In this document: positions 22,665 to 33,097 of the stretch, piece after piece
How positions within the stretch are numbered: the first letter of the stretch is position 1
How the letters are laid out: every line of letters starts with the position of its first letter
Virus record (IMG/VR): IMGVR_UViG_3300038443_002533
Coordinates: 32,001 to 96,000 of that record
Strand: one strand, 5' to 3'
Origin: a virus
Lineage: Duplodnaviria; Caudoviricetes
DNA: 64,000 nt
The notes under the pieces: generated by a model
Told to the model about the DNA's origin: nothing
Databases searched by the model: none
The model's input: the letters and a program-made list of their open reading frames with translations, nothing else
Program-made: the position numbers and the translations under genes

Positions 22665-23069
22665 ATGGATATCCAAGTCGGTGGTTCGTATTCGTTCAGT
22701 GTGTACCCGGTGGCCGTGCTCGGCACCAATTTCAAAAATGTATTGGTTCAGTCGATTTTGGATGCCGACTCGGCGCAAGCGCTGGGCTTGGATATCTTGG
22801 CGCAACACGCGCTGATTTATCCGAGTCTGCCGAACACCACGGTCAACAACCCGCAGAAGTACCGTTATCTGAAAATCAAGCTGCCTACCGGCTTGAGCCA
22901 GATCATCGCCATGGAATGGATCAATCCCGATACGCTCGAAGCAGTGAATCTGGGACGGTTTACCATTGTGATCGAAAACGAATCGAGCAGCAAACAGGCC
23001 AAAATCCTGGAAGCCTTGGCGGGGAATAACTTTACCGTCAAGTCGATCCAATTCGACGCAGCCTCCTAA
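22665..23069 (+). CDS. Conserved phiKZ-like protein (gp49-like position)
   Basis: 134 aa; GAGG RBS; immediately upstream of the polymerase gene as in phiKZ. Confidence 0.65.
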   Translation: MDIQVGGSYSFSVYPVAVLGTNFKNVLVQSILDADSAQALGLDILAQHALIYPSLPNTTVNNPQKYRYLKIKLPTGLSQIIAMEWINPDTLEAVNLGRFTIVIENESSSKQAKILEALAGNNFTVKSIQFDAAS

Positions 23070-23082
23070 TCCTTTTTTATTC

Positions 23083-23366
23083 GGGATCCTTATTGAATGC
23101 AGCGAGGTGCACACGCCTTGATGCTCTCCGCTTGGGACCTGGCCCAAAGGAGTGAATGATCCTGTATGCGGCAGGGTTAGTTTGTGTGAGAGTGACGCTA
23201 CGCCTTCCATCGAGCTTAAGTGAAGGGGTGGCACGAAGTGGGCGCTTGGGCTGTTCGGGGGCTGTTGATCCCGTCGGTTACTTTCCTCTCCGTTGGTTGA
23301 TCCGGCCGTTGAAGAGCTTTGGCCCCACGCCAGCTTACTGAGAGGGCGTGGCGTCACTCGTTTTTT
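23083..23366 (+). ncRNA. Candidate ncRNA with a roughly 170-nt rod-like domain
   Basis: 18-bp stem (23190-23207 with 23342-23359) with two G-U pairs, then a U6 tract; further internal stems. Confidence 0.5.
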
Positions 23367-23410
23367 GTACCCCATTGCGCGTCATGCGTGATATCCCAAG
23401 TTGTAACTTT

Positions 23411-23458
23411 GACCAGGGGCCTTCGGGCTCCTGGTCCTTTTATGCCGTTTCTTTTTTT
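23411..23458 (+). terminator. UUCG hairpin + TTTTATGCCG + U-tract
   Basis: GACCAGGGGCC-TTCG-GGCTCCTGGTC. Confidence 0.75.
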
Positions 23459-23507
23459 GTATTAGCCGACCTCATCATGTAGTCAAGCTTGCACACTAGG
23501 CCACTCC

Positions 23508-25652
23508 ATGTCCAAAAACAGTCCATTTATTTATCCTGCCGAAGAGTACACCCGCGAGATTGCCCCGATCAAACACGGGATCCATCAACACGCGGTGCAC
23601 CTCCAGATCATGGCCGGGATCCCCTACGAAGAAGCGGTACAGTTCGTCAAGCAACAACTTTCTCCCGGTGGTGAGTTCCCGATTCAAGACCCGAACGCGG
23701 TGTTCCTGGAACGCGATTTCGATACCGGTGACCGGGAAGACGGTGTAGTACCGATGTCGCAATACCTGCGCACGATTCTTCAAGAAGAACAGATCTACGC
23801 CCCGACCTTTACCACCTATCACAATCCCAAGGTACGCCTGTCACCCCTGTCGAAGTTCCAGGACGACAACGTCAAGTCACGCGGTAAAGCGAAGAAGGCG
23901 ATGTTCAAAGCCGAGCAAGAAGAAGGCAAGGACAGCTTTAACTACAACTACTACAGTGGTAAACAAACCACCGAGAAGTTGGCAAACAACGCCGTGTCGG
24001 GCGCGATGGTGAGTGAACACAATCCGCTGCACAACAAAACCGGCCACTCGTCGCTGACCTCGTCGTGCCGTCAAACCTCAGCGTACGGCAATGCCAACAA
24101 CGAACGCTTCCTGGCCAGTAACCGCCATTACTGGTCGTATGACACGGCCCGTAACAACATCGTCTCGATCATTGCCCACACCGACTTGGCGGCCGTGGAA
24201 CGGGTGATGACGCGTTATAACCTGCATTATCCGACCGCTGAAGAAACCTTCAATGTTGTGTACCGCTCGGCCAGCTTGTATTGGAACTCCAAGCCAGCGT
24301 ACGCCAAGATCCGTGACTTGATTGATCATCTCACGCCATTGCAACGTGCTGCCTATGTGTACACGGGCGACATGTACCAACTGAAGGAATTCAACGATGA
24401 TTTTCTACGCACTTTTATGGGACGCCTTATTCAACGGGTGGAAGTACCTGATCCCACTCCCGCCGAGACCATTAAGAAGTGGCCCGAAGACTTCTTCAAC
24501 CTAGCCAAACAACTCCAGCCCGAGATCACCAAGGGCAAGTCGATGGATGAGATCAAGAACGGCGATCCAGTCGGTTATGGGATCGTGGCAGCACAAACCG
24601 AAAACATCGCCAACGTCATGTGGGCGTATGCGGATTTGATCCGGACCTTCTGGGCCACGGACAATGTGCCTGCCTCGATCGCCATGTTCCCGCACAGCTT
24701 GCGCCGGGTGGTGCTGGTGTCCGATACTGACTCGACCATCTTCACCACGCAAGATTGGATTATCTGGTATTGCAAACAAGTCAAGTTCGACACGACCTAC
24801 GACGCGGTGTGCGCCACCATGATATTCTTGGCCTCGCAATCGATCATCCACATCCTGGCTAAAATGTCGGCCAACGTGGGGATTGGACGGGACCACGCCT
24901 TCACGATTGAGATGAAGAATGAATACAAGTTCGACGTGTTTGTTCTGACCCAACTCGGTAAGCACTATTTCGCCCAGATCAGCTGTCAAGAAGGCAACAT
25001 CAAAAAGGAACTCAAGAAAGAAATCAAGGGCGTGCACTTGAAGTCCTCGAATGCGCCCAAGCAGATCGTCCAGATGGCGGAAGACATGATGCTCGACATC
25101 ATGAACACCATCATGGCCAAGGGCACCCTGCAAGCGTATAAGTACGTTAAGCAAGTCGCGGACTTGGAACGTTCGATCATCGCGTCGATTCAGAAAGGTG
25201 AATTCAAGTTCTTGAAGCTCAGCACAGTGAAAGACCCGCAGGCGTATAAGAACGGTGAAGAAACCTCGACGTATAAACAGTACGGCATGTGGAACGATGT
25301 GTTCGGTCAGAAGTATGGTCGGGTCGCACCGCCGCCATACAAAGCCATCTACGTGAGTTTGGAATTGGACAGTAAAACCAAAACCAGCAACTGGTTGGAC
25401 AAGATGCCGGACCAAGAAATCGCTCGTGCCATGCGGCGATGGCTGGAAGAGAATAACCGCGATAAGATCACGTCACTGCAATTGCCGTTGCCGATTGTCT
25501 CGGCAAAAGGCATTCCGGATGAGATCATGTCGGCGGTGGATGTGCGTAAGATTGTCCAAAAAGCAACCGCGATGTTTTATCTCATCTTGGAAACCATTGG
25601 ATTCTACTTCAATCATGATGACTTGAGCCAACTGGCCATGGACTATTATTGA
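23508..25652 (+). CDS. Family-B DNA polymerase, C-terminal polymerase half (phiKZ gp50-like)
   Basis: KLANNAVSG (motif B-like), SDTDS (motif C) and KxY-like KHY; motif A lies in the 58104..59906 gene. Confidence 0.88.
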   Translation: MSKNSPFIYPAEEYTREIAPIKHGIHQHAVHLQIMAGIPYEEAVQFVKQQLSPGGEFPIQDPNAVFLERDFDTGDREDGVVPMSQYLRTILQEEQIYAPTFTTYHNPKVRLSPLSKFQDDNVKSRGKAKKAMFKAEQEEGKDSFNYNYYSGKQTTEKLANNAVSGAMVSEHNPLHNKTGHSSLTSSCRQTSAYGNANNERFLASNRHYWSYDTARNNIVSIIAHTDLAAVERVMTRYNLHYPTAEETFNVVYRSASLYWNSKPAYAKIRDLIDHLTPLQRAAYVYTGDMYQLKEFNDDFLRTFMGRLIQRVEVPDPTPAETIKKWPEDFFNLAKQLQPEITKGKSMDEIKNGDPVGYGIVAAQTENIANVMWAYADLIRTFWATDNVPASIAMFPHSLRRVVLVSDTDSTIFTTQDWIIWYCKQVKFDTTYDAVCATMIFLASQSIIHILAKMSANVGIGRDHAFTIEMKNEYKFDVFVLTQLGKHYFAQISCQEGNIKKELKKEIKGVHLKSSNAPKQIVQMAEDMMLDIMNTIMAKGTLQAYKYVKQVADLERSIIASIQKGEFKFLKLSTVKDPQAYKNGEETSTYKQYGMWNDVFGQKYGRVAPPPYKAIYVSLELDSKTKTSNWLDKMPDQEIARAMRRWLEENNRDKITSLQLPLPIVSAKGIPDEIMSAVDVRKIVQKATAMFYLILETIGFYFNHDDLSQLAMDYY

Positions 25653-31886: not shown

Positions 31887-33097
31887 TGCCCAATAAGCAA
31901 CAATTTCTGTAATACATCGCCCTTCGTAAAGAAAGGATATGCATGGAGTATAAAGGCGATGTTGAAAGTAAAGAATACCCTGGATTCTATTTGGTTCCAA
32001 GTTTTTCGCACACCTACATTAACGTTGATGGCAAAGTAATCGATCAGGATAAGCAACTCTGTCGATTACCGCTCTTGGTGGATTGGGGCTATCTGCAAAT
32101 ATACGCAGAGAAACGAACGATCTTTGTTCACCGATTGCTCGCCATGACATTTTTGGAAACTCCAGATTCTATCGAAGGATTGCAAGTTAATCACATCGAC
32201 GGTGTGAAAGCGAACAATGCGATTTCGAATTTGGAATGGGTTACGAGAAGTGAGAACTGTCTGCACGCGTATCAAACAGGCTTGCGTGATGAAAACACGC
32301 CAGTTCTGGTAAAGGATTTGTACGATGGATCAGTTACCAGGTACTATAGCCTACACGCATGCGCCAGAGCGTTCAACGTGTTGCCAGAAGTAGTGTTCAA
32401 CCACCTGAGAGACTACAACTACGGTAAGATCTCGTGGAAACATTACGTTCTTATTCGAGAAGGTCAGGAATGGCCAACGATCGATGAAGATTTAATTGGT
32501 TCACATCGGAACGGTTACCCCAAATGCATTGGTGCTGTGCACCAAGAGCATAAGAAGATCATGATCTTCGATAGCATCGGTGATGCGTCGGAGTATTTTG
32601 GTTGGAAAAACAATACGCTAGGAATGCACATGCGTCGCTATGGTTCAAGACCGCGCGATGGATGGACGTTCTGGTTTATTGAAGGGGAAAAATGGTACAA
32701 CAAACAGGGTGAAGTATTTACAGGAATTGTTGAATAAACAGTCCTACTCGCTAGAAATGGCGAGCTAGTATCTCCTTAATTGCTGGAAACTCTCGTTAGA
32801 CCAATGAGCTACAACGTAACTGGAAACAGTAAGCGTGAATGCTTGAGAATCATTGGGTAGAGACAATCAGCAGCGAAGTTCCTAATGGATTTACGTAACC
32901 AATCGTAGTGATATCCTAAGGAAAACGTTCAACGACTAACCCGTAGCGGGGTGTAGGGTCTCAAGCGAGATTCGAAATAGGAGACACCTAAACTCAAAAA
33001 AGAGTAGGTGAAGATATAGTCTGCTCCCCATGGAGACATGGGGCGGGTGTCTGAGCACACCGAGTGAGGAGATAAAGCGACCTCACTGGACACTAGG
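31887..33097 (+). mobile_element. Group I self-splicing intron with homing endonuclease
   Basis: P AATTGCTGGAAAC (32778), Q AATCAGCAGC (32865), R GTTCAACGACTA (32927), S AAGATATAGTCT (33011); exon 1 ends in U and the intron ends in G; splicing restores NADYDGD. Confidence 0.9.
31943..32737 (+). CDS. Intron-encoded HNH homing endonuclease (I-HmuI/NUMOD-like)
   Basis: VHRLLAMTF...VNHIDGVKANNAISNLEWVT..EN; own AAAGGA RBS; visibly more AT-rich than the flanking exons. Confidence 0.9.
   Translation: MEYKGDVESKEYPGFYLVPSFSHTYINVDGKVIDQDKQLCRLPLLVDWGYLQIYAEKRTIFVHRLLAMTFLETPDSIEGLQVNHIDGVKANNAISNLEWVTRSENCLHAYQTGLRDENTPVLVKDLYDGSVTRYYSLHACARAFNVLPEVVFNHLRDYNYGKISWKHYVLIREGQEWPTIDEDLIGSHRNGYPKCIGAVHQEHKKIMIFDSIGDASEYFGWKNNTLGMHMRRYGSRPRDGWTFWFIEGEKWYNKQGEVFTGIVE

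Follow-up and report, generated by a model that had tools for sequence, protein, structure and literature searches.

Nucleus-forming phages shelter their DNA and need the ribosomes of their host. Little is understood of the ways in which they steer translation or protect it. Structured RNAs such as S. aureus RNAIII and the RsaE/RoxS sRNAs carry C/U-rich loops that can seed pairing to purine-rich ribosome-binding sites (RBSs). Phages also encode large and ornate non-coding RNAs, of which ROOL and GOLLD are examples, with multiple helices and long-range loop pairings. The type III antitoxin ToxI is a pseudoknotted RNA found beside the MazF-fold ToxN. Most likely closest in mode of action to the RNA described here are the alpha-r14 or cuckoo sRNAs, of which NfeR1 silences ntrB by means of anti-Shine-Dalgarno (anti-SD) loops (PMC10746234).

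Here we describe a structured RNA gene with anti-SD loops, located in the core block of a nucleus-forming phage and overlooked by annotation and by Rfam. The literature searched holds no description of this RNA family. It is a concrete candidate for steering or protecting translation, and it can be tested now, because a related RNA is found at this site in three cultured phages, FLC9 of Burkholderia and RP12 and FLC4-3B of Ralstonia. The silence of transcriptome studies on the RNA may be because the usual models, phiKZ, RAY and PCH45, do not have it there.

Genomic context

The window (the whole stretch of DNA analysed, 64,000 nucleotides) is part of a complete phage genome of 272,470 bp. Genes for PhuZ, chimallin and divDNApol are present in this genome, which on that basis is that of a nucleus-forming jumbo phage. 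The stretch flagged in the initial annotation lies within a 438-bp gap running from the SH3DP gene to the divDNApol gene, in a core block together with the chimallin and polymerase genes, and the element is present as a single copy in the 272-kb genome. The gap and its borders contain the following features.

22665..23069, plus strand: SH3DP gene (134 aa; PF20287, phrog_3235), homologue of phiKZ gp49, upstream of the RNA
23073..23096, plus strand: promoter-like motif, a T-tract followed at a fixed distance by TAT, in 13/13 homologues
23097..23359, plus strand: structured non-coding RNA core of about 263-265 nt, defined by fold and covariation
23388..23396, plus strand: GTGATATCC, conserved and 3' of the rod; its reverse complement, GGATATCAC, recurs in this phage as an RBS spacer
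23411..23441, plus strand: intrinsic terminator with an 11-bp stem and UUCG loop (stem-loop 23411-23436) and a T-run, separating the RNA from the polymerase gene
23452..23479, plus strand: second promoter-like motif, T-tract...CATG, ahead of the polymerase gene and kept in relatives
23508..25652, plus strand: divDNApol gene (PF20286, phrog_2927), homologue of phiKZ gp50

Because its spacing is fixed in 13/13 homologues, we infer that the upstream motif is a promoter. A comparable T-tract...(C/T)AT motif stands ahead of the RNA in distant phages, and a genome-wide search for the motif gave no strong second copy. From its sequence, the motif ahead of the polymerase gene is a further putative promoter. 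The transcript may end at the U-run that follows the rod (23366) or at the terminator (about 23440). Provided that it reaches the terminator, GTGATATCC could act as a second anti-RBS element; the matching spacer, followed by CATG, is found ahead of at least six genes in the genome.

The neighbouring SH3DP is probably not a partner of the RNA. Its homologue phiKZ gp49 is a baseplate ring protein (PMC13250141). Solved structures exist for SH3DP homologues, the phiKZ gp49 baseplate ring being 9xqs, and phiKZ gp49 is also cited as a polymerase interactor. SH3DP was once likened to nucleic-acid-binding toxins (PMC7824862), and was considered here as a MazF-like toxin partner. Its model matches only the baseplate protein phiKZ gp49 at E<0.001, and a toxin-antitoxin-like pair was rejected for this reason. 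Two divDNApol homologues are longer, P0024 (806 aa) and P0082 (877 aa), and P0082 has PF08719 as an additional domain. A group I intron, presumably in the gene of an RNA polymerase subunit, as in phiKZ, is located downstream of the chimallin gene, at window positions 32718-33043 (Rfam RF00028, 91.4 bits).

Conservation and coding potential

Searching with the flanking proteins identified 15 phage sequences, 12 full and 3 partial, that have the element in the same SH3DP-divDNApol gap. A covariance model was built on ten full-length homologues; the other two full-length sequences, L299 and L306, are independent of it, and the two score 84.7 and 141.9 bits. RNAalifold gives 63 pairs, 43 of which are changed on both sides. 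For an 80-pair structure, both-side changes are found in 51/80 pairs and 91.7% of cells are paired, falling to 34-44% once the partners are slid; the alignment behind this count was fitted to the nested structure, and therefore leans towards it.

No conserved ORF was found on either strand. The window has ORFs of 61 aa (plus strand) and 241 aa (minus strand) over the stretch, and in three homologues there is an RBS-like motif and ATG on the minus strand, but across the homologues the ORFs are inconsistent in frame, length and sequence, which led us to reject a small protein-coding ORF on both strands. These ORFs, and the adjoining replicative polymerase gene, are what might suggest that there is no RNA here at all, and that the stretch is a DNA cruciform, an origin element or a small protein gene. 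We regard this as barely credible, given the many G-U pairs, the folding advantage of the plus strand and the covariation of a pseudoknot described below. Covariation in relatives, the strand asymmetry of the G-U pairs and the absence of any conserved ORF strongly support the structured non-coding RNA that the initial annotation put forward as a candidate.

The RNA does not belong to a described family. No relevant Rfam match was obtained for the window (E<=10), for ten homologue loci or for distant loci, using gathering and E-value thresholds; this covers the 6S, SRP and other Rfam models that had been suggested as a check. SRP RNA, Y RNA/YrlA, tmRNA, RNase P, known riboswitches and ribozymes gave no Rfam or ARAGORN match. 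A retron or RT-associated RNA was rejected, since PF00078 is not found in the complete genome and the flanks have no consistent pairing. Of some 260 loci picked up by pattern scans in viral and bacterial collections, the covariance model accepted only contigs of phages of the same clade, and no bacterial locus. In blastn searches against cultured phages, matches were limited to the terminator or to chance words.

Structure of the RNA

The stretch has a minimum free energy (MFE) of -124.2 kcal/mol (z = -3.34), and 0/200 shuffles fold as well. The layout is one of three hairpins (P1, P2 and P3), a linker, and then a rod containing a three-way junction, with the following elements.

23098..23101, plus strand: 5' leader UGCA, candidate partner of the P3 loop (PK3)
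23103..23120, plus strand: hairpin P1, with loop CACAC at 23110-23114
23126..23152, plus strand: hairpin P2, with loop ACCUGG at 23137-23142
23159..23177, plus strand: hairpin P3, with a conserved 7-nt loop Y-W-UGC-N-R
23184..23188, plus strand: linker GUGUG, the 3' strand of PK1
23190..23359, plus strand: rod, comprising P4a (18-bp stem), invariant CA/UG pairs, P4b, the three-way junction and a long P6 arm
23220..23234, plus strand: side hairpin P5, loop RGGUG (GGGU at 23226-23229 in the window, AGGU in relatives)
23261..23306, plus strand: apical module, a GAUC/GAUC helix between two 2-nt bulges, a short stem and a terminal loop
23278..23289, plus strand: pyrimidine loop, anti-Shine-Dalgarno-like, with its UCCU core at 23284-23287

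The sequences suggest that the 5' part forms a compact knot, in which as many as three loop pairings would hold the three hairpins together. In PK1, which covaries, the partners are the P1 loop and the linker: the pair is CGCAC/GUGCG in L004 and UCCAC/GUGGA in L299, which is outside the training set of the model and hence independent. Its summed Watson-Crick runs come to 60, against 42 +/- 3.4 for linker shuffles. PK2 joins ACCU of the P2 loop to AGGU of the P5 loop (GGGU in the window), with 100% of cells paired and one G-U variant, and PK3 joins the 5' UGCA to the P3 loop, with 98% of cells paired and zero both-side changes. PK2 and PK3 are thus nearly invariant, and so are compatible with the alignment rather than proven by it. 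The P2 loop is invariant across the first 13 homologues and changed in L299 and L306. The P5 stem, GUG/CAC in the window, is GCG/CGC in most relatives. Invariant motifs are present in internal loops and bulges (CA/UGA and the GAUC double-bulge) as well as in the apical loop.

Most of the rod helices had been proposed in the initial annotation. The 18-bp stem (23190-23207/23342-23359, with two G-U pairs) is borne out by the relatives, with 13/14 pairs changed on both sides and 97.9% of cells paired. Helices GTGGG/CCCAC, GGCTG/CGGCC and GCGCTT/AAGAGC (with one mismatch) are likewise present in the rod, as are CTCC/GGAG and TTGGG/CCCAA upstream. The run of six U residues said to follow the rod is found at 23361-23366, after one G, and in most homologues, but it is absent in L004 and L007. 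The TGGC/GCCA helix proves to be an artefact of folding a single sequence, covariation giving instead the side hairpin P5 at the three-way junction. The GGATC/GATCC helix, thought to enclose the upstream domain, is missing both from the MFE fold and from the relatives, and its 5' arm is part of the promoter-like sequence upstream. The initial annotation did not describe P1 or P3, the pseudoknots, or the apical loop with its UCCU. A Y-RNA-type bulged-C pairing and a K-turn were tried for the apical module and rejected, since the homologues back the double-bulge pairing. Likenesses to the 16S decoding site and to three known motifs (SAM-I, TPP and cobalamin) lacked conservation or Rfam support, and were likewise rejected.

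Size and shape had led to the proposal of a 6S-like decoy, holding the host sigma70 RNA polymerase. What resembles 6S RNA is the rod, about 170 nt in length and built on a long basal stem, and the phage family possesses RNA polymerases of its own (PMC8244752). However, there is no match to the Rfam 6S model and no two-sided central bubble: the unpaired runs of the rod, of 13 and 5 nt, are on the 5' strand only, apart from the apical loop, and the longer run overlaps the conserved hairpin P5. The 5' end of the RNA does not pair with its 3' end, and the rod is preceded by an additional, conserved 90-nt domain of three hairpins. In place of a bubble there are a three-way junction and pseudoknots, and the conserved letters sit in the kissing loops and above all in the UCCU loop, not in a promoter-like bubble. 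A 6S-like role is therefore highly improbable.

Related RNAs in other chimallin-type phages

A related gap of 400-580 bp is found in many chimallin-type phages, with polymerase identities of 42-57%. The usual order in these distant gaps is a T-tract...(C/T)AT motif, a P1-like hairpin, one or two long arms with pyrimidine loops, and a terminator. For the P1-like loop, a partner able to form 4-6 bp is often located 50-90 nt further on. Although the 5' knot is remodelled, the UCCU loops are retained; they are long, U-rich and often two per RNA, with one to three variable loops per RNA as against the one UCCU loop of the window clade. A bridging form is provided by L300/L307 (polymerase identity 57%), which combines a distant-type P1 with the apical GAUC module of the window, and has a loop with CCUCCUU.

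In the cultured phages RP12 (L390:708-1144, minus strand) and FLC4-3B (L009:1288-1713), the RNA occupies unannotated gaps of 430 bp, with inserted genes on one or both sides, including extra genes between the RNA and the polymerase. A version of 540-580 nt with two anti-SD loops is found in FLC9 (L008:1955-2491), L309, L311, L314 and L320. One loop of the FLC9-type RNA is CCUCCUCCC, as in the cuckoo sRNAs, and between one loop and the polymerase RBS there is a match of up to 8 bp.

Whole-genome covariance-model searches of FLC9, FLC4-3B, Xoo-sp14, phiKZ and RP12 gave no match, although three of these five genomes carry the remodelled RNA at the locus, which shows that the model is clade-specific. 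As it misses the distant forms, homology is here based on position, shared architecture and the bridging L307. The RNA is absent from the corresponding site in phiKZ, PA1C, RAY, PCH45 and 201phi2-1, and is therefore no universal part of the nucleus or replisome. The gaps of phiKZ (L056:2378-2578) and PA1C (L382:527-707) are short, and have in common a small conserved hairpin that is unrelated to the RNA. Short gaps are also found in Vibrio phage pVa-21 (L387:908-1154), L385, L354 and L361, with a minimal element, UCCUCCUU or AUUCCUUAA, right before the terminator. These elements are possibly reduced forms of the RNA.

The pyrimidine loop

Hairpins with a UCCU loop are concentrated on one strand of the gap. 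In the related phages, those with stems of 7 bp or more occur at 1.02 per kb on the plus strand of the gap, 0 on the minus strand, and 0.033 per kb in the neighbouring, mostly coding DNA. Under a strict rule, 8/16 gaps of 400-600 bp hold such a hairpin. The words enriched in the pyrimidine loops are UCCUC, UCCUU and CCUCC (z 3.9-4.8 against within-loop shuffles), which is the anti-SD core of 16S rRNA. The plus strand folds better than the minus strand in 23/24 gaps, and the loops are accordingly read as UCCU and not as the CsrA-type AGGA. The sub-clade of the window conserves only a 4-5-nt core, (U)CCU(U), the fuller CUCCUU/CCUCC being found in distant phages.

The commonest 5-mer ahead of the genes of this genome is AAGGA (89/260), a count that is biased because the starts were chosen by anti-SD pairing. 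For 19 thinned phages and loops picked by rule, pairing of the loop is -7.9 kcal/mol with the RBS of its own polymerase and -7.1 kcal/mol with those of the others (p = 0.028). Loops picked by hand gave p = 0.0025-0.003, and the rule-picked value is preferred. The cognate signal is modest, and may reflect genome-wide RBS habits. For the SH3DP RBS there was no clear signal (hand-picked loops, p = 0.10). Complementarity between the loop and the polymerase RBS extends over 7-10 bp in L306, L309 and L332. The loop of the window pairs with its own polymerase RBS at -1.8 kcal/mol, rank 18/19, and in a rough test against the RBSs of the genome 77% of shuffled loops were as good. Elsewhere in the genome, a gene at G000:C1:238606-238647 has a similar T-tract...TAT motif upstream, and its RBS, AGAGGAAG, is among the best complements of the window loop; it is a candidate target of the RNA.

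Possible functions

The reading that we tentatively favour is that of a trans-acting RNA whose loop pairs with ribosome-binding sites. The element would be a stand-alone non-coding RNA gene of chimallin jumbo phages, probably with a promoter of its own, used by a phage RNA polymerase, and with an end ahead of the polymerase gene. The long arm would display the single-stranded pyrimidine loop with its anti-SD core, while one loop pairing of the knot would reach the side hairpin of the rod, and the knot would provide stability and a protein-binding surface. The loop would then pair in trans with AGGA/GGAG sites of mRNAs and alter their translation, the target messages being phage replication-phase mRNAs, for example that of the polymerase, or host mRNAs. 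What is proposed here on transcription and its timing, on pairing, on the targets and on the direction of the effect is all deduced from sequence. Trans action is favoured because the terminator and the second promoter-like motif separate the RNA from the polymerase gene. For the same reason it is quite unlikely that the RNA is a cis-acting leader or switch of the polymerase mRNA, in which the loop would, on read-through, pair with the polymerase RBS or an arm of the terminator. A leader would fit the location of the RNA, immediately 5' of the polymerase gene and in the same orientation, in FLC9 and each of the 15 close homologues, and also the loop/RBS complementarity in several distant phages (L306, L309 and L332), but RP12 and FLC4-3B place other genes in between, the loop/RBS pair of the window itself is weak, and inspection revealed no conserved antiterminator. 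That weak pair, and the lack of any advantage over shuffled loops on the RBSs of the genome, also count against trans-acting pairing, as do the lack of clear recurrence of the promoter motif in the genome, a knot more elaborate than a simple antisense RNA requires, and a kinship with FLC9-type RNAs for which the covariance model gives no match.

The conserved core of 4-5 nt is short for an antisense seed, and would suit recognition by a protein better. MazF-mt3 cuts U^CCUU, in the 16S anti-SD sequence, and MazF-mt6 cuts UU^CCU (PMC5408214), and since the words of the loop are the sites of such anti-SD nucleases, the words do not distinguish pairing from decoy action. The main rival reading is that the RNA imitates the 3' end of 16S rRNA (or 23S loop 70) as a decoy that soaks up host proteins that bind or cut there, for example MazF-type toxins; its UCCUU/UUCCU loops would counter an abortive defence, and protect ribosomes that a nucleus-forming phage cannot shelter. 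The long, U-rich loops, often two per RNA, agree with this. On the other hand, both enzymes are mycobacterial and no such enzyme is identified for the hosts of these phages, a decoy is consumed once cut, and even the modest match to the own polymerase RBS would not be expected. We consider a decoy unlikely. A broader proposal embracing both modes of action, that these are pseudoknotted mimics of the 16S rRNA 3' end, widespread in nucleus-forming phages, which take RBSs from ribosomes or absorb enzymes that attack the anti-SD, is possible, though we lean against it. Slightly more doubtful than a decoy is a role as scaffold or ligand of some protein, from the phage or from its host (a protein sponge, or mRNA handling at the phage nucleus), for which the knot, the invariant CA/UGA and the GAUC double-bulge would be the binding sites and the loop secondary. 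It would explain why invariant motifs lie outside the apical loop, and the gene is within the core block, beside chimallin and the polymerase. Distant phages, however, remodel the 5' knot and keep the UCCU loops, the neighbouring SH3DP is a baseplate protein, five phages do not have the RNA at the site, and the genome contains no RT, Ro60/TROVE or bS21 gene.

Comparison with known RNAs

The trans-acting anti-SD RNA that we favour can be set beside several described RNAs. From 6S RNA it differs in the bubble, the ends, the junction and the pseudoknots noted above. Type III ToxI is also pseudoknotted, but the phage RNA is a single copy without tandem repeats. Compared with ROOL and GOLLD, it is smaller, has a fixed site in the chimallin core block and an anti-SD loop, and has no Rfam match. 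RNAIII and RsaE/RoxS differ from it in host range and fold; it has no internal ORF, and again no Rfam match.

The alpha-r14 sRNAs offer the clearest parallel. In these RNAs, which include NfeR1 of Sinorhizobium meliloti, the loops show an anti-SD motif while the stems drift, and the same is true of the phage RNA; they act in trans, with several loops in some members (PMC10746234), and trans action is what is predicted here. Alpha-r14 consists of three hairpins with identical CCUCCUCCC loops, whereas the RNA of the window clade has one UCCU loop, which in the window has the UCCU core only. The RNA described here is moreover phage-encoded and 265-550 nt long; its 5' domain is pseudoknotted, its rod bears a junction, and neither it nor the distant loci match Rfam. 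On this comparison, the RNA is not a member of alpha-r14, but most likely works like the known sRNAs with anti-SD loops.
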